This document shows, piece after piece, positions 16,011-28,849 of a stretch of 36,905 bases of DNA. The stretch is from IMG/VR virus record IMGVR_UViG_3300030376_006487, positions 1 to 36,905 of that record; one strand, written 5' to 3'. The DNA comes from a virus. Its lineage: Duplodnaviria > Caudoviricetes. The first letter of the stretch is position 1. Each line of letters starts with the position of its first letter. The translations under genes and the position numbers were made by a program. The notes under the pieces were generated by a model. That model made no database searches. It saw only the letters and a program-made list of their open reading frames with translations, and had not been told where the DNA came from.

Positions 16011-16053
16011 TTCTTGACAATTAAGATAGTGATGATTATATTTTTGTCAAGAA
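16011..16053. promoter_or_regulatory. Overlapping bidirectional sigma70-like promoters in a 10-bp inverted repeat
   Basis: TTCTTGACAA...TTGTCAAGAA. Plus strand: TTGACA-17-TATATT. Minus strand: TTGACA-16-TATCTT. Confidence 0.75.
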
Positions 16054-16064
16054 AGAATTTTACT

Positions 16065-17513
16065 ATGATTGAACATTATAAATTTAAGACAAAGCCATAC
16101 GAACATCAATTGAAAGCTTTGCAACGTTCTTGGGACCAAGAAACATTTGCATTATTTATGGAAATGGGTACCGGAAAATCAAAAGTATTAATAGATAATA
16201 TAGCACTTTTATATGACAAAGGAGATATACAAAACGTTTTAATTATTGCACCAAAAGGTGTTTATAGAAACTGGTATGAAATAGAAGTTCCTGTTCACTT
16301 ACCGGAACATATAGAACATACAACAGTTTTATGGGAACCTAGTTTAACTCAAAGTAAGTTAGCGGAGCTCGATTCTTTATCACAAAACGATGGTAAGTTA
16401 AAGATATTTATTATGAATGTAGAAGCGTTTTCTACTAATAAAGGTATTGACTTCGCAGAGAAATTTTTAAACACTACAGTTGGGCGATCACTAATAGGAA
16501 TTGATGAGTCTACGACAATCAAAAATCCGACAGCCAAAAGAACCAAGAGTATTTTAAAACTTAGGGATTTAGCAAAGTATCGTAGAATTCTCACCGGATC
16601 GCCTGTTACAAAGTCTCCGCTGGATTTATATTCACAATGTTATTTTTTAGATGAATGGCATTTAGGATTTACATCTTATTATGCTTTCCGCTCACGATAC
16701 GCGCACATGGTCGAACGAAACTTTGGTGGCCGTCGCGTACAAATTGTTGGGTCCTATCGAAGACTGGATGAACTATCAGAAAGCCTTGATAAGTTTTCTT
16801 ATCGTGTCTTAAAAAAAGATTGTTTAGATTTACCAGAAAAAACTTTTGTCAAAAGAATAGTAGAATTAACTGATGAGCAAAAAAAATTATATGTATCCAT
16901 GAAAGCTGCAGCTATGGCAGAGCTCAAAGGTAAAACAATGAGCACCATAAATGTTATTACACAGATGATGAGGCTACATCAAATTACTTGTGGTCATTTC
17001 AAAGCTGATGATGGCACTGTCACTGAAGTGAAAAGCAATCGTATGAATGAACTACTATCAATTTTAGAAGAAACAGAAGGTAAGGTTATTATCTGGGCAA
17101 ATTATGTACATGACATAGAAAAAATTGTGGAAGTCTTAAAAAAAACCTACGGAAATGACTCTACAGTTGCATATTACGGTGCTATTGATGCAAACACACG
17201 TCAGAAGAATATCGCTCTGTATCAAGCTGAAAACGGAAATACAAGGTATTTTGTTGGAAACACACAAACCGGAGGCTATGGAATCACCTTAACTGCTGCA
17301 AACACTGTTATTTACTATTCGAACAACTATGACTTAGAAAAAAGACTACAATCTGAAGATAGAGCTCATAGAATTGGTCAAAAAAATATTGTTACCTACA
17401 TAGATTTAATTTCTGAGAAAACTGTTGACGAAAGAATCGTCAAAGCATTACGCAACAAGATAGATATTGCTAATGAGATTATGGGTGAAGAGTTAGTAGA
17501 CTGGATTAAATAG
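16065..17513 (+). CDS. SNF2-family (SF2) helicase
   Basis: YEHQ, MEMGTGKS, DEST, LTGSP, GGYGITLTAA and QSEDRAHRIGQ motifs; probable start MIEHYKFK downstream of the promoter. Confidence 0.93.
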   Translation: MIEHYKFKTKPYEHQLKALQRSWDQETFALFMEMGTGKSKVLIDNIALLYDKGDIQNVLIIAPKGVYRNWYEIEVPVHLPEHIEHTTVLWEPSLTQSKLAELDSLSQNDGKLKIFIMNVEAFSTNKGIDFAEKFLNTTVGRSLIGIDESTTIKNPTAKRTKSILKLRDLAKYRRILTGSPVTKSPLDLYSQCYFLDEWHLGFTSYYAFRSRYAHMVERNFGGRRVQIVGSYRRLDELSESLDKFSYRVLKKDCLDLPEKTFVKRIVELTDEQKKLYVSMKAAAMAELKGKTMSTINVITQMMRLHQITCGHFKADDGTVTEVKSNRMNELLSILEETEGKVIIWANYVHDIEKIVEVLKKTYGNDSTVAYYGAIDANTRQKNIALYQAENGNTRYFVGNTQTGGYGITLTAANTVIYYSNNYDLEKRLQSEDRAHRIGQKNIVTYIDLISEKTVDERIVKALRNKIDIANEIMGEELVDWIK

Positions 17514-17967
17514 CCGACGCGTATTCTGTTTTGCCTTGTTTGTTTTTAAAAGCAATTAAATACTGACCACGGTTATCGTTTGCTTTGTGTGAGCAATGTA
17601 TCCAACCACTGTTTGGATCTTTGCCATCAAAAAATTCTAAAATTAATTGATCGTAAGGTAAGTTCTCATCTATCCAATCAGCAACTTCTTTATTAGAGAC
17701 TCCAGGTATTTCAAAGTCTACTGCTTCTCCTTTGGCATGTTGTGATTTACTAGAAGAACCAATCGCTTCACAAAGTTCAACACTTCTAAATCCTGATGTA
17801 ATAATAACCGGTCGATCAAATGTTGTTCGAATAGGTTCTAATATATTTAAACAAATCATTTTCATATTATACAACTGAGTATCGTCTGGCTCATTATTTA
17901 TTCCTTTTCGTAGTGCTGTTTGTGATTTAATAAATTCTTGGTAACTAAAGTGTTGTGATAGTTTCAT
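17506..17967 (-). CDS. Peptidase M15-family endolysin (Zn-dependent peptidoglycan peptidase)
   Basis: LSQHFS..EF, ITSGFRS, SQHAKGEAVD and WIHCS motifs. Confidence 0.9.
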   Translation of the reverse strand: MKLSQHFSYQEFIKSQTALRKGINNEPDDTQLYNMKMICLNILEPIRTTFDRPVIITSGFRSVELCEAIGSSSKSQHAKGEAVDFEIPGVSNKEVADWIDENLPYDQLILEFFDGKDPNSGWIHCSHKANDNRGQYLIAFKNKQGKTEYASAI

Positions 17968-20900
17968 TATACTCTCCTATTAATTCTCTGTGCTATCGCT
18001 TGTTCTCCTGGTGATAGTAGAGTTTGTTCAGCTTGTGTTAGTTTTGTTACAGGATTGACTACATTAACATTTGCTAAATTTGTTGTTGATGCTACATCCG
18101 GACTGGGTGTTGCTGGTAGCGGTGGAGTTTGTATCTCTGTTTCTGCAACTTGAGCATTAGCGCTAGGTATCAAAGATAAACTTGCTTGCTTTTCTGTAGG
18201 TGGAACTTCTATTTCAAATTTTTTACGTTCAAAATTTCTAATTACGTTATCTAAATCTCTTCTAGGGTAATAATAATTTCTATCTTTTTCTCTTGTAAAG
18301 ATTTCTACATCTCTCTTTTTTTCTAATCTTTTAAGTTCTTTTATCTTTTTTCTAAACAATCCAGAACTGTAATTAACTGGAGTGAATCTACCTTTTAATA
18401 AATTATTGATTCTTTTACCAGATATTTTTCTGTCTTTCATAATTTTTCTTAAATCTCTATCTGATACACCAAATTTTCTAGCTGTTTCTATTGCTTGATG
18501 AATTTGTAATTGTTGTCTAAAAGCTTCGTTCTGAATATTAATAAAGTCATTAACCATTTCTGAAGGATCTCTTGTAGGCCAATTATCTGTAGAATAAAAG
18601 TCTTCTGTTTCAAATACTTCTTTTTGTATTCTGTTAAAATCTGTCAAAACATAGTTCAATGTTTTTTGAATGTCCGCATCAATAACACGTACACCAGTAA
18701 ATAAGTTTGTTAATTCCACAAAGGGATCATAGTCTTTGGCGCCAGTAAAACCTTGACCTATTCTTCTAAAGGTCCTTGTTGCACCAGGTTCAATACCTTC
18801 GATAATATGTCCTAGAGATTTTATTACTTTATCAGATCCATCATCACTATCAGAATATATTTTTGTTCCTGTTTTTGTAACACCACCTCGACTACCAACA
18901 CCATAACCAGCAGGTAAAACATCAGCTATTTTTTCAAATAAAATAGATTCAGAAACAAACGGACTAATTAATTGATTGATAGGACCTGTAACAAATTCAT
19001 ATAACAAACTATCTTGTGCTTCTTTAGGCGATATTTCTCTTTGTTTAAGGATGTTTGTCATGGCTCTAAAAGGAGCAGTTACAACATCATAAGGACTAAA
19101 ATAAGAAAAGTTTATCATTTTAAATAAACCTTTTTCTGGTTTGCTAATAGGAATTAAATTTGAGTTTTTTTCCCAACTAGCTCCATAATCTCTTTTGTAA
19201 TCATCAATCATTTCATCAGTAACACCACTAAACTGCTCTGCTATTTTAGATACAGCTGCATCTGCTCCACCTAAAACAGTGCCTGCTCCAAACAATCGAC
19301 GATATCCCATCTGTCTCATTTTAGGATTTTTTGATGCAATCTCTCTCATTGATAATTCTAATATATTGTAAGTTGTTCTAATCATTTCCGCAGGAAACGA
19401 TACAAAGTTTCCAAGAGGAAGTTTTCTTAAATTTTGAATAACTTTTGGAACTTTACTATAAGTTGGATAAGTATTTCTAATATACCAAGCAGCAGCTTCT
19501 TCAATCGCTTCATCTAAATTTTTTCCAACAACATTATATTCTCTTCCAACAATTTCTTTGAACCAAGCGGCTACATCGTCTGTTGTTTTGAAAACACTTT
19601 TTAATTGTGATTTCATATACTCATGACCATACCACTTCCATAAATTATCACCACCAGCATAGACCCTAGTAACGTCTTTCATAAATTTAGTGTTGGCTAA
19701 TTTATTAATAATTGTATCTGTGTTATCAATTGTTCCTGATTTAATTTCTTTTAGAACAGCTTGTAATTCAGAGGCCACGATGTTTTCATCAATGACACCT
19801 AATTCTATTTTTCTACTTATATTATCAATTAATTCTTTTTCGTTTAATACTTTTCCTGCTCCAAAGATATCATCTAACACCATTTTCAAAGCATTAGGAA
19901 CAGAACCCATACCACCAATATGTCCATTAGCTAAAGGAAAGAAACTCGCAGAAGTCACGTTTCGAACTTGTGTGGCTGGAGATAGAACTGTTTTACCAAA
20001 CTGAACTAAAGTTTTTCCTTGAAGTGCTAAATTATATAAACTGTTTTGCATTAACTTATCTAAAAATCCTTTACTACCTCTCAGCGCTTCAGCTAATTCA
20101 TTAGAAGCATAAAGCTTTCCTAAATCATTACTTTGTAATAAACCCAAACCCGGTAATCGTACAATTTGTTTAGCATCTAAAATTCCTGATGCACGAGCCG
20201 CGGCTCTCGTTTCGAACAACCATCCTTGTCTTTTCCCTAGTTCTGCTAACTGATCAAATAGTTTTTTATTGGTTGTACTTGTAATCATACCAGTGACTGT
20301 TTGTAGAACAGAAGATTTTAAGTTTTTTTCTTCACCTAATAATTGCTTGATGACATCAGGTAATTCATCTCCTGTTTTTAAAAATTCATCACTTCTTAAA
20401 ATATCTTTTGCGATAAACTGTAATGTTTTTAGTGGATCGTCAGCGTTTGTTTTACCTTGCTGTAAAATATTTTGTGTTAAAATTTCAGCATAGTCTTTCA
20501 ATGCTTCTTCCGCAGGTAAGTCAGGGTTAGATTTAACAGCAGCTTCGACTAAATCTTTGTTTTTTCGAACAACATTTTGTGTGACCCAACTAACTGCTTT
20601 GTTAAAAGTTTCTTCCGGGGGTTTGTAAGATGAATTAGTAAATATACTAAAAGATTTTCTCATATATCCAGCAACATTATCTAAAATAAAAGTTTTTAAA
20701 TCACCTTCAGGTAAGGCATCTCCAAAGGTTTGCTTTATTTTTATTAACTCATCGTTAAGATTTTTAGCAGTGCCTCTTAATTGTTCCGGTAAACTATTTA
20801 ACTGTCTTTGTCCTTTTAAATACTCTAAGACATAGTCTAAATATTGTGTTTGTTGAGCCGGAGAACTTGTTGCATTATCATATTGGTTATTAAAAGATTT

Positions 20901-22115
20901 AGCTAAGTTATAAGCTTTCTTTTCTATTGACTCTAAATATTTTTCTATTTTTCTTGATTGACCTTTGATATATCTTGCAGCACCTGAAGTTAAGTTAAAC
21001 TGCTCTCCTGTTTCTTTACCCACAGAACGAAAAGCGGATAAAAAATCGTCTAGTTTTTTTAGTCTTGCTTTTAAAGGATCAGCACTTTGTATAGAAAATA
21101 ATCTCCATTGTTGAAATGGAGGTAGTTTTGTAAAAGGTAATTTTCTAACAGCAATAGGAGCTAATATCTTCTTTAAAAAAACTTCTCCTCCTGCTTTAAT
21201 GCCTTTAGAAATTGTGGGTATGACAACAGGATCTTTTGATAATAAATAAGAAGCTGGACTGATAACTAAAGTATCTGCTGCTTTTAAACCTATACCCGCT
21301 ACTTTTGCAGCAGGTTTAAATAAACCATACTTAAAACCAATCGCTGCGGGTTTTCCCATTAAAGAAATACCACTACCTAAAACAAAACCTTCTTGTCCAT
21401 ATAATAATCTATTTTTTAATCTAGCTGCAGCTAATTCTCTTCCCTCCAAACCTTCTGTATCTACTAATTTTTCTTCTCTAAAAGGAACAGGTGCATCAGG
21501 ACCACTAGCAATAAAATCTGTAGCGGCACCCAAAGAACCAAAACCAATCGCTCTTTGTGCTACATTTGTAAATTTATTTTTTGATAAATAATTTACTAAT
21601 CTACTTGCACCAGGTATTAATTTTTTAGCTCTGCTTCCAACTTTTAATACAACAGAACCAGGTAATCCATATTCAACTAAGAGAGAAGTGATATCCCCTA
21701 CTGCATCTTCTGGTTGTTCTGGTTTGTAATTATTATATATCTCATCTACTTTTTTTGTAAGTTCTGTGTCTAATGCGATATCAACTCCACCAAACAATAA
21801 ATCTGCAAAGCTGTAAGCTACTCTTGCTTGACCAGCGTTGATACCTTTTCTGACTTCATCTATCCAACTATCAGCATCTTGCTCATTTAATTTTCCTTCT
21901 TCTTCTAATTTTTTTTCAAGTTCTTCTTTAGCAAATGTAATACCACTGACCTCTAGAGGATTTAATGGATTAGGTAATTCTTTAACATTCTCTATAAAAT
22001 TTTTCCAACTGAAAATTTTTTTTTCTGGTTCGGGATTTAATTGATCTTTTGTTGCGTCTTTAACATTTTGAGCAGTGATTTGATATTTATCACCGAGTCT
22101 TCTTACAAAAGACAT
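17967..22115 (-). CDS. Large internal virion / DNA-ejection protein (1382 aa)
   Basis: Size, helical composition and position as last gene of the podovirus-like virion module; no catalytic motif recognised. Confidence 0.65.
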   Translation of the reverse strand: MSFVRRLGDKYQITAQNVKDATKDQLNPEPEKKIFSWKNFIENVKELPNPLNPLEVSGITFAKEELEKKLEEEGKLNEQDADSWIDEVRKGINAGQARVAYSFADLLFGGVDIALDTELTKKVDEIYNNYKPEQPEDAVGDITSLLVEYGLPGSVVLKVGSRAKKLIPGASRLVNYLSKNKFTNVAQRAIGFGSLGAATDFIASGPDAPVPFREEKLVDTEGLEGRELAAARLKNRLLYGQEGFVLGSGISLMGKPAAIGFKYGLFKPAAKVAGIGLKAADTLVISPASYLLSKDPVVIPTISKGIKAGGEVFLKKILAPIAVRKLPFTKLPPFQQWRLFSIQSADPLKARLKKLDDFLSAFRSVGKETGEQFNLTSGAARYIKGQSRKIEKYLESIEKKAYNLAKSFNNQYDNATSSPAQQTQYLDYVLEYLKGQRQLNSLPEQLRGTAKNLNDELIKIKQTFGDALPEGDLKTFILDNVAGYMRKSFSIFTNSSYKPPEETFNKAVSWVTQNVVRKNKDLVEAAVKSNPDLPAEEALKDYAEILTQNILQQGKTNADDPLKTLQFIAKDILRSDEFLKTGDELPDVIKQLLGEEKNLKSSVLQTVTGMITSTTNKKLFDQLAELGKRQGWLFETRAAARASGILDAKQIVRLPGLGLLQSNDLGKLYASNELAEALRGSKGFLDKLMQNSLYNLALQGKTLVQFGKTVLSPATQVRNVTSASFFPLANGHIGGMGSVPNALKMVLDDIFGAGKVLNEKELIDNISRKIELGVIDENIVASELQAVLKEIKSGTIDNTDTIINKLANTKFMKDVTRVYAGGDNLWKWYGHEYMKSQLKSVFKTTDDVAAWFKEIVGREYNVVGKNLDEAIEEAAAWYIRNTYPTYSKVPKVIQNLRKLPLGNFVSFPAEMIRTTYNILELSMREIASKNPKMRQMGYRRLFGAGTVLGGADAAVSKIAEQFSGVTDEMIDDYKRDYGASWEKNSNLIPISKPEKGLFKMINFSYFSPYDVVTAPFRAMTNILKQREISPKEAQDSLLYEFVTGPINQLISPFVSESILFEKIADVLPAGYGVGSRGGVTKTGTKIYSDSDDGSDKVIKSLGHIIEGIEPGATRTFRRIGQGFTGAKDYDPFVELTNLFTGVRVIDADIQKTLNYVLTDFNRIQKEVFETEDFYSTDNWPTRDPSEMVNDFINIQNEAFRQQLQIHQAIETARKFGVSDRDLRKIMKDRKISGKRINNLLKGRFTPVNYSSGLFRKKIKELKRLEKKRDVEIFTREKDRNYYYPRRDLDNVIRNFERKKFEIEVPPTEKQASLSLIPSANAQVAETEIQTPPLPATPSPDVASTTNLANVNVVNPVTKLTQAEQTLLSPGEQAIAQRINRRV

Positions 22116-22116
22116 T

Positions 22117-23199
22117 TTACTCCTCCTGAGGTAGAACTAGGTTTACGTTGTATCTTTTATTGAAGCTGTCTACATCAGATTGTGTTCTGATATTTGCAAA
22201 GTCGGATAAAGCTTGATTGCTTTGTGATATTAACATTACAATATCATTAGTAATTTCTTGTGGAAGTCTGGATCTCAAATCTCCAAAAGATAAATTTTCA
22301 ATTTGTTGTGTAGCTGTTTCTTCTTTCACAGGAGTTGCTTGTGTGGTCATACCACCTTCTTCCATCTTTACTCGACCACCTTTTTTGTAAGAAGAACCTA
22401 ATGTTTCTTTTACTAATCTCATGACTTCCGCATAGTATCCTGTATCTGTAGGATTCCAGTTTTCACCTGTTGCAGGATTAATATTTTCTTCTAACATTTC
22501 TGCAACATCACCAAATAAATATTTACCTTCATCAGATTTCAAGAACGCTTCCATGATAGGATCACTTTCAGTTAAAACAGATAACTGTGATTGTTTTAAA
22601 TCTATTTGTCTTTTAATTTCTTCTCTTTCATCTCCTTCACTAAGTGATAAATTTTTATTTAACTCATTAATATCAGTTGTTAATTCACCTATCATTTCAA
22701 TTTTTCTTTCTATTTGATAACCTGCACCAGTAGTTTCTGCTTTTTTCAAAGCTTCTTTTCCAAGTTGTTCGTAAGCGGCTTCAATGTTTCCTGCTTTAAT
22801 AGCTAAATCTCTAAGGTCTGCTTCTTTTGTTTTGTCTTTTCTAGCTTGCATACTTGCTGATATGTCACCAAGCGCATCTGAAGCAGATCCGGCTAGTTTT
22901 TGTGCAAAAGTTTCATCACCACCTTTGGTAGCAAATTCAAAAGATCTTTGCGCTAGATTAAGAAGTTCCGGTCTTGTTAAACCAAAAGTTGTTTTTGTTT
23001 CTGGTCGATCAAAAAGACCCATAGATTTTTGTAATTCTAATAATTTTTCTGCTTCGGATTGCACACGACCCATATCTATACCACTGTCACCACCGTTCGA
23101 GTACCCCGGTCTATCGTCTAATCCAGATGTAATCCCCGTTCCGCGGCTCTCGATCTTGCCGCCACCTCTAAACATTGGTCTTCTTAAAGTTCTACTCAT
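22117..23199 (-). CDS. Putative internal virion protein (360 aa) with xxGG motifs
   Basis: RRPMFRGGG, PGYSNGG and YKKGGRVKMEEGG; lies between other ejection-type genes. Confidence 0.6.
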   Translation of the reverse strand: MSRTLRRPMFRGGGKIESRGTGITSGLDDRPGYSNGGDSGIDMGRVQSEAEKLLELQKSMGLFDRPETKTTFGLTRPELLNLAQRSFEFATKGGDETFAQKLAGSASDALGDISASMQARKDKTKEADLRDLAIKAGNIEAAYEQLGKEALKKAETTGAGYQIERKIEMIGELTTDINELNKNLSLSEGDEREEIKRQIDLKQSQLSVLTESDPIMEAFLKSDEGKYLFGDVAEMLEENINPATGENWNPTDTGYYAEVMRLVKETLGSSYKKGGRVKMEEGGMTTQATPVKEETATQQIENLSFGDLRSRLPQEITNDIVMLISQSNQALSDFANIRTQSDVDSFNKRYNVNLVLPQEE

Positions 23200-24047
23200 T
23201 ATGTGTTCATCGCTCCTATGATACTAGCGATACCTCCTCCAATACCTAAAATATTTTGTAAAGGGCTAGGTGGTTGCTGTGTTGTTGTTTGATATGTTTG
23301 TTGTGCGGGATATCCACCGATTAATCCTGTTAATTGTTGTCCTACAAAACCTAATCTTTGTTGTTCTTCAAAAGCTTTTTCTCTTGCGGCCTGAGCTTGA
23401 GCATCTAGAATTGCTTGTGACTGAGCCTGTTGACCAGTGCCTAATTGTTGTAATGCAGTGATTTCTTGTTGCGCTAATTGTGGCGCTAATTGTGCTAATC
23501 CTTGTTGTTGTGTTGACAAAGCTTGTTGTTGACCAAAAGCTTGAGCAGCTTGTTGCTGTGCATTTTGAAAAGCTTGAGCTCGAAGTTGTCCTTCTAACTG
23601 AGCTTTACCCATAGCAGTTTCCGCATCAAAAACACCTTCTTGAACGGCTTGACGACCACCACCAAAAGCACCTAGTTGTGCTGCTTGTGTTCCTATTTGT
23701 TGTCTAGCAACATCTCGTTCTCTTTGTAATGCAGCAAGAGAAGTATCAATAACTTCTTGCTGATAAGGAGACATAAATTCTTGATACGCTTGTGGTCCTA
23801 CAAATTGTTGTGCTCCTGTGGCTTCGGCACCGGCTTGAGCTAGAAAAGGTTCAAATGATCCAAGGCCCGCGGCTTGTTGATATGCTTGTTGTTGTAACGG
23901 GTCTTGCGCAGCAACGGTTGGAGCATAAGAAGCTGTATCCATAGCGTTAGCAGGATTCAGTAAAGGCATCAGTCTTTCTGTCAGTGTTGTTCCCGCCGCC
24001 TCTATAAACGGCGCGGGTTTCGTCGTGGTAATAGTTTCGTCTGGCAT
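23199..24047 (-). CDS. Q/A-rich putative DNA ejection (pilot-like) protein
   Basis: FMSPYQQEVID and GAFGGGR motifs, long Q/A helices, hydrophobic Gly-rich C-terminus. Confidence 0.6.
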   Translation of the reverse strand: MPDETITTTKPAPFIEAAGTTLTERLMPLLNPANAMDTASYAPTVAAQDPLQQQAYQQAAGLGSFEPFLAQAGAEATGAQQFVGPQAYQEFMSPYQQEVIDTSLAALQRERDVARQQIGTQAAQLGAFGGGRQAVQEGVFDAETAMGKAQLEGQLRAQAFQNAQQQAAQAFGQQQALSTQQQGLAQLAPQLAQQEITALQQLGTGQQAQSQAILDAQAQAAREKAFEEQQRLGFVGQQLTGLIGGYPAQQTYQTTTQQPPSPLQNILGIGGGIASIIGAMNT

Positions 24048-25492
24048 TAGACTCTAGCCTCCAATTTGTGCATTAAATCATACATTCTTTTTGCCCCTTT
24101 GTTAACACTTCCTCCACCGGCAGCTCTCACTGCATCAGCGGTCATAACAAATTCGTTCTTTGATAATCTTGCAGGAACATCGTCGGCTTTTTCTTTAACA
24201 CCAATCGGTACAAAACCTCCTGGTCTTAAATCCATTTCAGCTGGCATACCACCTGTTTTTAAGTTCATAATACCACCGTCTGCTTTGTAAATACGTCCGC
24301 CCATAGCTTCTTTAACACGACCTTCTTCTCGTGGTTCCATAATCTGATCAATCATATCATCACTCACAGAACCCTCTGGAGGATTATCTAATTCCATACC
24401 AATACGCATTTTATATTCTTCTAATTCTTGCATGGCTTGTTTGGTAGCCATTTCATCTGCTTTTTGCATTTGTTCCATACTATAAGCACCGGTTCCCGCT
24501 TCGGCATCAAACATATCACTAAGTATTTCTTTTTTACGTTCTTCAAACATTCTTTGCATAATTTCTTCAGTAGGTCTACCAATACCAAATTTGGCTAAAA
24601 AGTTAGTTACCGTAGAACCACCTATTTTATACCCAATACGTCCGCCGTTTGCTTTGCCCTGACCAAATAAACCTTCGTATATTTCTATAATTTCATCGTC
24701 TGTTTTATCATCTAAATCTTTTCCACCGAAACCACCGCCACCGGCGTCTATAATTTGATTTTTCATTATAAGAATTTTCATGTCTTGCATGGAATCACCT
24801 AATGTTCCACTACCACCACTGGAAAAACCAACGCGGCCCCCGGTCTTATATCCATAACGAGATAATGCATCGTCAATTTCAGATTGACTGAATCCTGCCA
24901 TACCCATGTATCTTGAAATATAATCTATTCTTGATTGTCTGTCCGCAGCGGAATCAGCTTCTCGACCGGCCATTTCTTCCTCATATTTTCTTCTAGCTTC
25001 TTCTGCTGCGTCGTACGCGGATATTGTTCCACCTGCTGTTGCAGCAGCGCTTGCACTTTTTCCAAGGCTACTTAAAACTTCTTCTTCACCAATTCCTTCT
25101 GTTAGTTTAAATTTTCCATCTCCGCTTATTTCTGTTGGAGCTAACAGTGTACCGGCATCAGTAAAAGCACTTTTTGCTTTGTCACCCAGATCCATTCCTA
25201 AAAACTGTCCACTTTGTCCAACGTTTTTAAAATATTGTCCACCGCCCCCCATTAAAGCAGATACGGCTGCGGTTCTTGGATCAACTTTACCTTTAGTTAA
25301 TAAATCAACACCAGCTGATGTTAAACCAGAAGCTAAGGCTTTACCTCCTAAAGTGCTCATGATACCTGTTCCAAGAGCTCCACCTAAAAATTTTCCAACA
25401 AGAGGACCACCAAACATAGAAGCTGCGATAGGTAAAATAGGTTGTATTTCTTTTGGTATAATTCTTCTAACTGCTTTACTTATTGATCCCAT
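24047..25492 (-). CDS. Putative internal virion protein with Gly-rich hydrophobic N-terminus, GG repeats and DDVPARLSKNEFV domain
   Basis: Composition, repeated GGR(V/I)G(Y/F) motifs and position in the virion module. Confidence 0.6.
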   Translation of the reverse strand: MGSISKAVRRIIPKEIQPILPIAASMFGGPLVGKFLGGALGTGIMSTLGGKALASGLTSAGVDLLTKGKVDPRTAAVSALMGGGGQYFKNVGQSGQFLGMDLGDKAKSAFTDAGTLLAPTEISGDGKFKLTEGIGEEEVLSSLGKSASAAATAGGTISAYDAAEEARRKYEEEMAGREADSAADRQSRIDYISRYMGMAGFSQSEIDDALSRYGYKTGGRVGFSSGGSGTLGDSMQDMKILIMKNQIIDAGGGGFGGKDLDDKTDDEIIEIYEGLFGQGKANGGRIGYKIGGSTVTNFLAKFGIGRPTEEIMQRMFEERKKEILSDMFDAEAGTGAYSMEQMQKADEMATKQAMQELEEYKMRIGMELDNPPEGSVSDDMIDQIMEPREEGRVKEAMGGRIYKADGGIMNLKTGGMPAEMDLRPGGFVPIGVKEKADDVPARLSKNEFVMTADAVRAAGGGSVNKGAKRMYDLMHKLEARV

Positions 25493-25916
25493 AATGTTCC
25501 TTTGTATATCTTGTTACAACTCTTGTGATAACCTCATCATCAGTTATTCTCAACCATTTTACAGGTTTATTACATCCAAGTAAATTAGTAAAGTATTGTT
25601 TTGTCCATTTCATAACAGATTTCACATCATCAACGCAAATTGTATCAATGTGCCAGGGAATGTCTCCACTGTTGTAATCTTCAGGGTTTAATTCGGCGGT
25701 TGTCATAAATCGTTTTTCTGCATCCTCATTTAAAAATGCCCAGTTTGTAAAGGCATAAGGTAGCTCATTTCTATAGTGAATCTTATACTGATTCATACTA
25801 ACAGATGGGGCTATATGTTGAAGCACGTCCTCGAACGTGTGATCTTTGTAGCGAGGAAACAACTTATAAAGTCCATAAGCTACGGTAATATCGTATAATT
25901 TACCGATATCTGACAT
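25476..25916 (-). CDS. HlyC/CyaC-like (RTX toxin-activating lysine acyltransferase, TAAT) homologue
   Basis: IAPSV..NQY, PYAFTNWAFLNEDAEKRF and EDYNSGDIPWHID align with recalled HlyC motifs LPAI..NQY, PVAYCSWANLS.E.E.KY and EDWTSGDRKWFID. Confidence 0.8.
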   Translation of the reverse strand: MSDIGKLYDITVAYGLYKLFPRYKDHTFEDVLQHIAPSVSMNQYKIHYRNELPYAFTNWAFLNEDAEKRFMTTAELNPEDYNSGDIPWHIDTICVDDVKSVMKWTKQYFTNLLGCNKPVKWLRITDDEVITRVVTRYTKEHYGINK

Positions 25917-25920
25917 AGTG

Positions 25921-26166
25921 TCAAGAGCTGGAGTCGCTTAAAATATCTGGCATTTTAGCTATTCTAATCTTGACAGTTCTACTTAAATCTTCTTGTTTTG
26001 TATCTGTGTTGACATCATTTACATCATCTTCAGCTTCTTTATCTGAATTATACTCTTTACTAGTTTTAGTATTTATAAGAGTAACTTCTGTTTCGACATC
26101 AATCTCTTCAACGGTTTTACCATCTTTAACAACCGATACTTTTCCACCAGGTTCTAAAAAAGACAT
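25921..26166 (-). CDS. Hypothetical virion-module protein (81 aa)
   Basis: AAGGAGGT RBS. Confidence 0.75.
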   Translation of the reverse strand: MSFLEPGGKVSVVKDGKTVEEIDVETEVTLINTKTSKEYNSDKEAEDDVNDVNTDTKQEDLSRTVKIRIAKMPDILSDSSS

Positions 26167-26175
26167 ACTACCTCC

Positions 26176-26505
26176 TTAATCTCTATTTATTTCTAATATT
26201 GCACAAGTGCCTTCAATATCATTAGCACTAGCTGCTTGTACTCTTAATACATCATTTTCTTCTAAAACAATAGAACCATCTGATATACTTTGTGATTCAT
26301 TTGCAGCGATAGTATGCTTTGCAAAAGTGAATTGTGTTGTTACAGAGCTGTCATATAGATGTGCATGAACTACAACGTTTCCTGATCCTATGTTTGCCAT
26401 GTGTATATTTTGAATAATTGCTCTTGAGTTTGATGGTACAGTATAAACATCAGTGACGTCAGTGCTTGTTAAATCAAACTGTGCATTTTTATAAATATTA
26501 GCCAT
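26176..26505 (-). CDS. Small beta-rich virion structural protein
   Basis: VYTVP...IVLEENDVLRV pattern; coupled to the upstream gene. Confidence 0.7.
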   Translation of the reverse strand: MANIYKNAQFDLTSTDVTDVYTVPSNSRAIIQNIHMANIGSGNVVVHAHLYDSSVTTQFTFAKHTIAANESQSISDGSIVLEENDVLRVQAASANDIEGTCAILEINRD

Positions 26506-26684
26506 TAACTTGTACTTCCTGAAGATTTAAACCATGTATAACGTTCTGCTTCTTGTTTTAGTTCGTCTAAATAAGTAGAGTTTAATTGTTCAATAATAAT
26601 ACCAATCGCTCTGTTTATTTGTTTTTGGTTTGATACATCGTAATCTTCTTTCGGTTCTGGTATTTTAACATTTATTTTTGCCAT
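26505..26684 (-). CDS. Small virion-module protein (59 aa), absent from ORF track
   Basis: MAKINVKIPEPKEDYDVSNQKQINRAI...; TAATG-type overlaps at both ends. Confidence 0.75.
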   Translation of the reverse strand: MAKINVKIPEPKEDYDVSNQKQINRAIGIIIEQLNSTYLDELKQEAERYTWFKSSGSTS

Positions 26685-28849
26685 TATCTACCCCCGTCCG
26701 GTTGCACATCTAAACTAAATGTACCAAATCGCCAGTTTTGATCAACGTCATCGTTTTCAATTTTGATATTGACATATCGACCACGAGCTCGAGTATCTTT
26801 TTTAGTGGTTGATGATGTAATTGAAAATGGACTTAAACCTGTTGTTGATTCTTCTTGAGAAGGAAAACTTTTCACGGCCAACGTTACTTTGGCTGTTCCC
26901 TCTAAAACTTTAAAGTCAGGAATAAATCGTCGAACAGCTAAAAACTGTTCTCCTTCTGTGCCTTGTCCTTCTAAATCAAAATCATAAGACTGTACAAAAG
27001 CATTAATCGCGGTGCTCGATCCGTCAATATTGACTTGATTAACACCTATTTCATGTTCGAAATACGTTGTTGCCCCTAATCCTGTATTCCCTTGAATGAC
27101 TGGAAACGTACCTGTTTCACTAGAAGCAAAAGAAGTTGCATAAGGTTTAGGATAAATAGAAGAGTCCATCCATGATGTACGGCCTTCAGTGCTTGTGTAC
27201 CAAATACCGCCAGGAACTTGTGCTCCTAAAGATTCGAGATAATTGTATGCTACTAATCTATTATTAAAACTTTGACCAGATGCGGGATACCACCAAACAA
27301 TTTCTGTAAACAAATTGTTTACACCTGCAGTAATTTGTTGTCCTTTGGTTAAGTCAATATCATCATATACAAAGTCTTCAACAGAACAAGGCAGTGACTT
27401 AACTGTACCATCGAATAAGAAGAAACCATTGTTGCTCATCCAATACGCAACACCATCTATTTCGACAGCTGCGTTCTTACCAATCAAACCACAGTTGGTA
27501 CCTACTTGTTCAAAACCAAATGTAAAAGGTGCACCAATAAATTTCATAGTATACAAAGCAGTATCGGTCCATATCAAAATTGTTTCTTTTGCTTTCAAAG
27601 CACCAACGATTTTAGTTCCATCTTGCAATCGTTGTGTACCTGCTGCATTGATAGCAGAAGGTATAAAAGTATTAATATCTTCTTGATCAGAAAAACGAAT
27701 AAACATATCGTCTTGTGTTGTTGCTGTACCTATAGTTGTTTCTGTACCAAAGTGAATTAAATGTCTTGTTGTAGGTGATATCAAACTAACTCTTGTTGCG
27801 GTAGGATTATTAGAAGTAGAAAAACCAGATGTACTTGTTGAAGCTCTATTTGATGTTGCATCAGAAGCACCACCATTCCATGTAAAGGTTTTGCCATTTG
27901 CAATTGTAGCTACTAAAACTTCACCAAAGTTATCTATAGACCAGAGTCCTGGTTCCAAAGAAACAAAAGAAGCACCTACTGCAACACCCCAACCATTATA
28001 GTCAGAGGCATCAGTGGCAGTTGCTCCGTTATCATGAGTCGCTGCAGTCGTGCCTAGAGCTCCTCTCGTACAACCTGTTAAATCATTCGTTGATTTACCA
28101 GTATAAGTAATTAATTCTGAATCTACTAAGATAGTACCCGCAGTAGGAAAAGCTGTAGCACTCGTTAATGTAATTGTTGTTTCACTTGCATCCAATGCTT
28201 CATTTACTGTTGTGACTGTAGCAGAGTCAACCGTACCACCCCAATTACCAACACCCCAACCATAACCGTATGTTTGTTCTTGAGGACCAACAACTTCATA
28301 CATTTTACAAGTCATTGAACCACCTGTTGATATAGTAGCGGTTGCAGCTGCAGAAGAAGTAATGGTGAAAGTTGTCGTTGACGGTACAGATGTTATTTCA
28401 AATTTTTTATCTTCAAAGTTAGAAGCACTAAGTCCAGTGCCACTTGGTAGAGTCACTGCATCTAATTGTACAATATCCCCGGTCGACGCTCCGTGAGCAG
28501 ATGTTGTTGTAATTGTTACCGTTGTAGAAGTATTAACGGTTGCCATTGTCGATGATGTCAGAGAACTTTTTATTGGTGTTATATCAAAAAGCTGACCTTC
28601 AAAGTACAATAAAAGAAACTTATCTGTACCGAGGGCCACGTATCGATTGCCATCTAAATCTGTGAAAGGATGTTGTGCTCGAACAACACCGACAATTTTG
28701 TCTGGTAGAAGAGAAGACCAACCTCCAACTTTTTCTGGTAGACCATAACGAAAGCGGACATTATTAGAATCCACAAATCGACGTTCGGCACCTTTCGTGG
28801 TGTCCTGTTTGTCTATCCCAGGTAAAAAGTCTAAGGTAATGAGAGCCAT
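26684..28849 (-). CDS. Tail nozzle / packaged-DNA stabilisation protein (P22 gp10 / T7 gp12-like beta-propeller) with Thr/Ser-rich inserted domains
   Basis: NVRFR.G.PEKVGGW, IRFSDQED, G.NCGLIG and C-terminal RARGR...WRFG; position just upstream of the ejection genes. Confidence 0.65.
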   Translation of the reverse strand: MALITLDFLPGIDKQDTTKGAERRFVDSNNVRFRYGLPEKVGGWSSLLPDKIVGVVRAQHPFTDLDGNRYVALGTDKFLLLYFEGQLFDITPIKSSLTSSTMATVNTSTTVTITTTSAHGASTGDIVQLDAVTLPSGTGLSASNFEDKKFEITSVPSTTTFTITSSAAATATISTGGSMTCKMYEVVGPQEQTYGYGWGVGNWGGTVDSATVTTVNEALDASETTITLTSATAFPTAGTILVDSELITYTGKSTNDLTGCTRGALGTTAATHDNGATATDASDYNGWGVAVGASFVSLEPGLWSIDNFGEVLVATIANGKTFTWNGGASDATSNRASTSTSGFSTSNNPTATRVSLISPTTRHLIHFGTETTIGTATTQDDMFIRFSDQEDINTFIPSAINAAGTQRLQDGTKIVGALKAKETILIWTDTALYTMKFIGAPFTFGFEQVGTNCGLIGKNAAVEIDGVAYWMSNNGFFLFDGTVKSLPCSVEDFVYDDIDLTKGQQITAGVNNLFTEIVWWYPASGQSFNNRLVAYNYLESLGAQVPGGIWYTSTEGRTSWMDSSIYPKPYATSFASSETGTFPVIQGNTGLGATTYFEHEIGVNQVNIDGSSTAINAFVQSYDFDLEGQGTEGEQFLAVRRFIPDFKVLEGTAKVTLAVKSFPSQEESTTGLSPFSITSSTTKKDTRARGRYVNIKIENDDVDQNWRFGTFSLDVQPDGGR

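Follow-up and report, generated by a model that had tools for sequence, protein, structure and literature searches.

Toxin-activating acyltransferases (TAATs) such as HlyC, CyaC and ApxC modify internal lysines of RTX toxins. A TAAT can also serve a protein that is not an RTX toxin. CdiC, from class IV contact-dependent inhibition systems, puts 3-hydroxydecanoate on an internal lysine of a cell-surface effector that grips the bacterial outer membrane; it is accessory in its own system, and the acceptor residue covaries with the presence of the gene (available passages of PMC8510554). Here we describe a TAAT homologue encoded by a marine tailed phage. It was found in the IMG/VR virus record IMGVR_UViG_3300030376_006487 (Duplodnaviria; Caudoviricetes), a linear record, about 59% complete, whose 36,905 nucleotides were analyzed in full (below, the window). 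The enzyme gene encodes 146 amino acids (aa) and lies at 25476..25916 on the minus strand. It overlaps by 17 nt the gene of a 481-aa protein (24047..25492, minus strand), the predicted first ejection (internal virion) protein of the phage and the predicted substrate of the enzyme.

The enzyme shares with the RTX-activating TAATs the sequence family, the fold, the Asp and Arg columns and a gene coupled to that of a predicted membrane-active substrate. It is unlike them in its length of about 146 aa, in having Tyr for the catalytic His and Phe for the Ser before it, in the lack of an RTX or type I secretion gene in the record, and in its predicted acceptor, the N-terminal Gly of a virion protein instead of an internal Lys. 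Its accessory status, its non-RTX partner and the covariation described below recall CdiC, which differs in keeping the His/Asp dyad and in its acceptor. CdiA/CdiB or RTX and type I secretion neighbours were not seen beside the phage enzyme; its neighbours are virion genes.

The place of the gene resembles a slot known from T7. The slot before the first internal virion protein (IVP) is normally held by an acetyltransferase-like gene, that of T7 IVP-A (gp13) included, and is replaceable (available passages of PMC4819975). T7 gp14 (IVP-B), encoded next, is the first protein out of the virion and becomes inserted into the outer membrane; the word ‘acyl’ is absent from the available passages of PMC8954989. 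As in T7, the phage enzyme stands between a tail gene and a predicted ejection cluster. Unlike it, T7 gp13 belongs to the GNAT family, and the protein that follows such a GNAT often starts with Met-Cys (5 of 8 records), in contrast to Met-Gly and a small residue here.

Entry proteins of some non-enveloped animal viruses, such as picornavirus VP4 and reovirus mu1, are N-myristoylated: an internal capsid protein carries a fatty chain on its Gly2 and, once released, engages a membrane. In those viruses the work is done by the host N-myristoyltransferase (NMT) with myristoyl-CoA, whereas here a virus-encoded enzyme of TAAT fold is predicted to act, likely on acyl chains carried by acyl carrier protein (ACP). 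A conserved Gly2 in the partner proteins is the feature shared with NMT systems; the phage enzyme itself matches no NMT family.

We consider it rather probable that the enzyme fatty-acylates the alpha-amine of Gly2 of the protein encoded next, in this record the 481-aa predicted ejection protein. Host methionine aminopeptidase, which removes Met before Gly, would expose Gly2, and the enzyme would acylate it in the infected cell before packaging, the donor suggested by its family being host acyl-ACP. The acyl chain would extend an amphipathic N-terminal helix and anchor the protein in a membrane as it exits the virion ahead of the others. In phages without the enzyme, bulky residues would supply an equivalent membrane grip. 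The gene of this subfamily has been annotated before; what we infer anew is the N-terminal site on a virion protein.

Family membership and active site

The sequence-only reading of the window had assigned the 146-aa ORF (open reading frame) to the HlyC family from its motifs and had pointed out its overlap with the 481-aa gene. The motifs are present in the sequence, and the assignment holds in profile and structure comparisons. In Pfam the ORF matches only HlyC (PF02794; 51.4 bits with a cut-off of 25, E 1.3e-13, profile positions 10-118 of 127) and no GNAT or NMT family. ApxC (PDB 4whn, E 6.5e-8) is the sole sequence match of solved structure below E 0.6. An AlphaFold model built from an alignment of 54 sequences (pLDDT 93) was matched to 4whn by Foldseek with E 2e-9 to 5e-9 and TM 0.75-0.78. 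The next-best fold is a GNAT-like domain (E 9e-3), other GNAT folds are weaker, and no NMT is found among the listed PDB fold matches. The earlier remark that no RTX toxin or type I secretion gene accompanies the ORF also stands: the record, at about 59% completeness, has no match to the RTX calcium-binding repeat (PF00353), the ABC membrane domain (PF00664) or ACP (PF00550).

TAAT catalysis depends on a His/Asp dyad, His37 and Asp107 in CdiC, and His mutants of CdiC and ApxC retain some activity (available passages of PMC8510554); those of PMC8953716 hold nothing further on catalytic residues. The phage enzyme carries the residue pattern F20, Y23, H34, N58, D91, R123, which we call Tyr-type. 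Tyr23 (25848..25850, minus strand) occupies the column of the canonical His (ApxC His24) and is invariant in 54 close homologues, and Phe20 stands in the preceding Ser column. His34 (25815..25817, minus strand), aligned to Asn in ApxC, is a candidate replacement active-site residue. Asp91 (25644..25646, minus strand) aligns without gaps to the W-x-I-D motif of ApxC, that is, to the TAAT catalytic Asp, and is at least 90% conserved among close homologues. The Arg123 column is kept both in close homologues and in a wider alignment. In TAATs this column has a role in ACP binding, and the catalytic Asp of ApxC is Asp93.

A profile search with the enzyme gave 1,060 clusters at E <=0.001, and from the best 150 of them 113 representatives of 110-225 aa were aligned. 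At E <=1e-10 there were 125 clusters (50% identity), part of which are canonical TAATs. Column 23 is aromatic (Tyr/Phe/Trp), with F/Y/H/A at column 20, in 57 of the 113 representatives, His in 38 and another residue in 18. In a tree, 13 His-type rows stand apart from the phage rows with 98% SH-aLRT support, subject to long-branch warnings and one misplaced partial row. Among 185,579 cellular genomes the Tyr-type clade was found at only 2 loci, both on short contigs of metagenome-assembled genomes. The locus L476 (CAKZOX010000098.1; L numbers are our locus labels), binned as Campylobacteraceae, is an HTVC103P-type phage fragment with the enzyme and a gp58-family gene, and its taxonomic assignment is probably a binning error. 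Judging from alignment and tree, the enzyme is a distinct, mostly phage subfamily of the HlyC/TAAT family; we file it so because it is a family member and yet lacks the defining catalytic His.

Partner genes and their N-terminal residues

Among 50,697 phage records in GenBank there are six matches to the enzyme, all in pelagiphages (HTVC026P, 103P, 104P, 111P, 112P and 115P). These homologues are 31-40% identical to it and bear the label ‘toxin-activating lysine-acyltransferase’. The available passages of the pelagiphage preprint (10.1101/2019.12.14.876532) name HlyC once, in the abbreviation list of a figure legend, and give no substrate or mechanism. In HTVC026P, 111P and 112P the enzyme gene is flanked by a minor-tail-L-like gene and a J-like tail-tip gene, and in HTVC115P by a large tail gene and the gene that opens an internal-protein cluster; it directly follows the large tail gene in HTVC115P and in HTVC103P-type contigs. 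The HTVC111P-type pelagiphages, called podoviruses in the available passages of the same preprint, have a siphovirus-like module of tape measure, distal tail, L-like and central fibre J-like genes (HTVC026P; L001:6661-12534).

We collected 120 enzyme-anchored loci, and the next gene could be read in 74. Most copies are followed by J-like genes, others by genes of the 481-aa family or of the HTVC103P gp58 family; four copies are in early regions and one follows a portal-like gene. In L260 (1193-1597, minus strand) the enzyme comes after a portal-like 834-aa gene and before the gene of a 296-aa protein starting MGA, a fourth partner context. A second sample started from the 481-aa family itself: of 120 loci, 80 had flanks and 74 could be read, and the enzyme is present in 2 of the 74. 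A whole-record search of 75 of these fragments and of 5 complete genomes found no further copy. The enzyme is an accessory gene that precedes at least three unrelated virion proteins. The sequence-only reading had expected a conserved linkage to ejection genes. The enzyme is indeed coupled to the head of the predicted cluster; a universal link is rejected, since most relatives lack the gene, some copies are in early regions and most partners are J-like.

The first residues of the next protein covary with the presence of the enzyme. This was assessed in the J-like family by selecting 120 loci with a J motif: 44 with the enzyme, 44 without it, 27 with too little upstream DNA and five unreadable. 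A bulky hydrophobic residue, namely Phe, Leu, Trp, Ile or Val, stands at position 2 or 3 in 0 of 40 distinct enzyme-linked J N-termini versus 40 of 43 distinct enzyme-less ones. The three misfits were inspected post hoc: two are wrong start calls (a second ATG and a GTG) whose corrected starts read MGFF, and the third has a GNAT in the slot. With these two starts corrected by hand and the GNAT locus removed, the counts are 0 of 44 loci with the enzyme and 43 of 43 without it. Gly2 is present in 41 of the 44 enzyme-linked loci. J trees from which the N-terminus had been excluded imply 12 changes of enzyme state with 72 rows and 10 with 71 rows. Independent pairs gave 8 differences in the same direction, none in the opposite one and 3 without a difference before the correction, and 8 of 8 after it (p=0.008). 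Residue 3 is encoded by many codons within each J class. Before the conserved domain, 11 of the 44 enzyme-linked J N-termini contain no Lys, which favours the alpha-amine as the acceptor. Six J alleles (L228, L236, L245, L343, L345 and L360) have 25-55 additional N-terminal aa ahead of an internal Gly-Phe sequence that resembles a start; such extensions may be cleavable leaders.

The same pattern was found in the 481-aa family, where the next gene is visible in 76 of 84 enzyme-anchored loci (for L076, L078 and L080 the start was placed at the second in-frame ATG, in agreement with the gene overlap in sister loci). Of these proteins 75 start MG[S/K/A/G/C] and one starts MSS, against a background of 13 such starts among 414 other ORFs, and Gly2 is kept in 64 of 65 enzyme-linked homologues. 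Without the enzyme 0 of 72 start so: 18 start MG[F/L/I], 40 MAI and 14 otherwise. Ten of the extended alleles retain an internal Gly-Ser/Lys helix with Tyr-Phe-Leu or Tyr-Gly-Leu before it. An aromatic residue within positions 2-4 is more frequent in enzyme-less than in enzyme-linked alleles both in J (82% vs 15%) and among MG-starting 481-family alleles (69% vs 0%). In a third family (HTVC103P-type, 10 loci), eight partners with an adjacent enzyme start MGS and one is cut. Cultured phages follow suit: partners start MGG or MGA in HTVC026P, 111P, 112P and 115P, which have the enzyme, and MGI (HTVC202P) or MGF (023Pt_psg01) where it is absent. In HTVC103P and 104P the enzyme is far from the partner, which still starts MGS.

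In the window the predicted acceptor Gly2 is encoded at 25487..25489. Still inside the enzyme gene, near its end, a Shine-Dalgarno-like AAAGGA (25498..25503) precedes the 481-aa ATG by 5 nt and supports Met1-Gly2 as the true start. Partner proteins begin with an amphipathic helix and a hydrophobic stretch. In the 481-aa protein these are a basic helix of residues 2-12 (25457..25489; hydrophobic moment at the 99th percentile of the protein's 11-mers) and a Gly/Ala-rich stretch of residues 19-49 (25346..25438; 19-residue hydropathy means 0.8-1.4), all on the minus strand.

The sequence-only reading had also asked whether a GNAT or a TAAT holds this slot in related phages; both are found before J. 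Some HTVC111P-type phages have a GNAT (PF00583, above cut-off) in the slot between L and J (L348:848-1300 and L460-L466), and J starts Met-Cys in 7 of 7 such loci. Relatives of the slot GNAT were found in 67 GenBank records, and the next gene starts MC in 4 of 7 examined; T7 gp14, which also starts MC, brings the total to 5 of 8. This suggests that gp13-type GNATs acylate an N-terminal Cys. In the CRP-810 paper the slot GNAT is classed as an auxiliary metabolic gene (available passages of PMC11288001). A hidden GNAT in enzyme-less cultured phages was considered and rejected: PF00583 has no match in HTVC027P, 023Pt_psg01 and HTVC202P, nor in HTVC026P and HTVC115P, a search that divergent GNATs such as T7 gp13 would escape.

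Competing explanations

Several observations weigh against acylation of Gly2 or limit the link to virion genes. Characterised TAATs modify Lys and not alpha-amines (available passages of PMC8510554), the canonical catalytic His is absent from the enzyme, and the Asp91 column varies in a wider sample of 59 (Asp 39, Glu 14, other 6). The link to virion genes is not universal: the enzyme is in the early region of HTVC103P, with matching coordinates in HTVC104P, and most copies precede a tail-tip J-like gene, not a podovirus-type ejection gene. The enzyme-anchored sample contains 70 virion partners: 55 conform, having no bulky residue at position 2 or 3 (52 start MG[G/S/K/A], 3 MAE), and 15 break the rule with mixed starts. 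The HTVC103P-type locus L485 has an MGG start and no enzyme in its 15-kb fragment, and the enzyme-less IMG/VR records are fragments, 6-86% complete. In the 481-aa family 40 of 72 enzyme-less alleles have a different, extended N-terminus, and the tree holds only 4 supported pairs, none opposite (p=0.125). Among the 44 enzyme-less J alleles, 4 have an N-terminus without Lys as well. Simple hydropathy compensation in J is rejected, the Kyte-Doolittle sum over residues 2-4 being 1.5 in enzyme-less and 2.8 in enzyme-linked alleles; a hydrophobicity gap appears only on an interface scale. Finally, residue 3 is about 10 nt from the gene junction, and linkage with the upstream cassette could carry it along.

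All 15 rule-breaking partners belong to one enzyme subclade (97%, 14 distinct sequences). His or Tyr at position 34 and Asp91 are each found in 0 of 15 of its members, and His/Tyr34 in 57 of 59 other enzymes. These loci are missing from the J-motif sample because their J genes lack that motif. The subclade may be inactive or have another specificity.

The covariation would fit any N-terminal modification, so that the enzyme might place a short or non-fatty group on the N-terminal Gly, as a mark for head packaging or for protection from proteases and not as an anchor. Its replacement of a GNAT in the same slot and its active-site columns, unlike those of fatty-acylating TAATs, agree with this. 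However, ApxC (E 2e-9) is nearer to it in fold than the GNATs, which match at E 9e-3 or weaker, and enzyme-less alleles gain aromatic or bulky residues exactly at the N-terminus, as expected if a hydrophobic group is being replaced; we regard a short group as unlikely. Acylation of a Lys side chain, either at an internal Gly-Lys site or in the N-terminal helix, appears slightly less likely again. Every characterised TAAT modifies Lys (available passages of PMC8510554), and Lys6 and Lys69 are kept in 43 and 46 of 65 homologues, respectively. The sequence-only reading had singled out seven Gly-Lys dipeptides of the 481-aa protein. All are present (K34, 51, 69, 127, 145, 258 and 280), but at chance level: 5.4 are expected (P=0.29, 10,000 shuffles), each site remains Gly-Lys in at most 26 of 65 enzyme-linked homologues, and the ratio of observed to expected is 0.93 with the enzyme and 0.95 without it. 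Internal Gly-Lys is therefore rejected as an acylation signal. A Lys could be the acceptor without such a motif, since the CdiC site itself is not a Gly-Lys lysine. Against any Lys stand the 11 Lys-free enzyme-linked J N-termini and the fact that the feature tracking the enzyme is residue 2 or 3.

An enzyme with Phe and Tyr in the canonical Ser and His columns and a variable Asp91 could also be a catalytically dead or non-transferring chaperone that holds the amphipathic N-terminus of its partner until packaging. We find this about as improbable as Lys acylation: the Asp/Glu and Arg columns are mostly retained, the more hydrophobic enzyme-less alleles would need a chaperone more, and the loss of His34 and Asp91 coincides with the loss of the N-terminal rule. 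The gene could finally be an accessory passenger with a host or other target, the N-terminal pattern then arising from linkage at the junction. Its presence in only 2 of 74 readable relatives, its early-region copies and the adjacency of residue 3 to the junction are in line with this, and the last point makes linkage the main statistical caveat. Yet linkage alone is disfavoured by the diversity of codons, by the recurrence of the pattern in unrelated partner families and by the phages with a distant copy, whose partners still start MGS; the third state, GNAT with Met-Cys, speaks against it as well. A mere passenger seems to us very improbable.

The preferred reading remains acylation of Gly2. 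The N-terminus of the next protein tracks the content of the slot, which is most simply explained if the enzyme in the slot acts on that protein's first residue. The sequence-only reading had held that the phage acylates one of its own virion proteins. The tight coupling and the N-terminal covariation in two unrelated partner families lend this idea real support, whereas its internal Gly-Lys sites are given up.

Surrounding genes and biological meaning

All genes of this region are on the minus strand, in the order tail gene, two small genes, enzyme and four-gene cluster. The tail gene (26684..28849) encodes a 721-aa tail stabilisation (tubular tail B-like) protein that matches PHROG 3287 (E 1e-100), as does the ‘stabilization protein’ of phage DSL-LC04. 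The two small conserved genes (81 and 109 aa, 25921..26505) are found in most relatives, with or without the enzyme. In the cluster the 481-aa gene is followed by that of a 282-aa Gln/Ala-rich predicted DNA ejection protein (23199..24047; PHROG 4287 ‘DNA ejection protein’, E 3.8e-8), by a 360-aa gene (22117..23199) whose order is conserved among relatives and whose product has no family match in Pfam, PHROG or NCBIfam, and by the gene of a 1382-aa large virion protein (17967..22115), which matches PHROG 22602 (virion structural protein, E 9e-27), HTVC027P gp85 and Cellulophaga phage virion proteins. Since three cluster genes match HTVC027P gp82, gp83 and gp85 and phage 023Pt_psg01, the record is related to HTVC023P-type pelagiphages.

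We infer that the 481-aa protein, a homologue of HTVC027P gp82, is an ejection protein from its position as the first of four coupled genes after the tail genes, from the PHROG match of the next gene and from weak matches of its own. The latter include a tape-measure motif in the C-terminal region (24050..24340; PHROG 5448, E 1e-4; PDB 8zdo tape measure protein, E 0.007), for which the structure model is poor (pLDDT 62). This region is strongly conserved in the family, while total length ranges from about 280 to 920 aa across relatives. NCBIfam gave zero matches for the six proteins searched, and the ESM Atlas search matched unnamed viral clusters only.

A motif x-G-G-[R/I/M]-[I/V/M/T] recurs in the variable linkers of several predicted internal proteins (residues 217, 282, 397 and 405 of the 481-aa protein, 273 and 281 of the 360-aa protein, also L260:4114-4446); it could be a capsid-targeting or maturation-cleavage signal. 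Downstream, a SNF2-type helicase gene (16014-17513, plus strand) meets a peptidase M15 endolysin gene (17506-17967, minus strand) tail to tail, and 023Pt_psg01 has the identical layout. In HTVC023P-type phages a glycosyltransferase gene and a PHROG 1574 gene are often located just upstream of the slot or the enzyme (annotated in L049:5397-7239, with genes of similar size or sequence in L042, L046, L054 and L129), hinting that virion proteins may also be glycosylated.

We hold a broader generalization only tentatively: tailed phages may widely lipidate the N-terminus of the first virion protein to enter the host envelope through one interchangeable slot, with a TAAT for Gly, a GNAT of the T7 gp13 type for Cys, or no enzyme and bulky residues. 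In the literature searched, which covered few subscription journals, we found no description of phage virion-protein acylation by a TAAT or a gp13-type GNAT, and no substrate for the acetyltransferase-like gene that precedes the ejection proteins of T7 and many podoviruses. From the three-state N-terminal rule follow a proposed substrate, its site and a readout by a single mass measurement; the cultured phages with and without the enzyme are natural controls, and the T7 gp13/gp14 pair can be tested in the same way. The enzyme subfamily, which is large, occurs in some of the most abundant groups of ocean phages. If the proposal is true, these phages would use an undescribed lipid anchor for entry, a virus-encoded counterpart of the myristoylation of entry proteins, and T7 gp13 would gain a function. 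The enzyme would be the first alpha-amine-acylating TAAT, and a Gly-acylating TAAT without the canonical His would bring a chemistry new to the family and might serve as a tool to lipidate proteins in bacteria.

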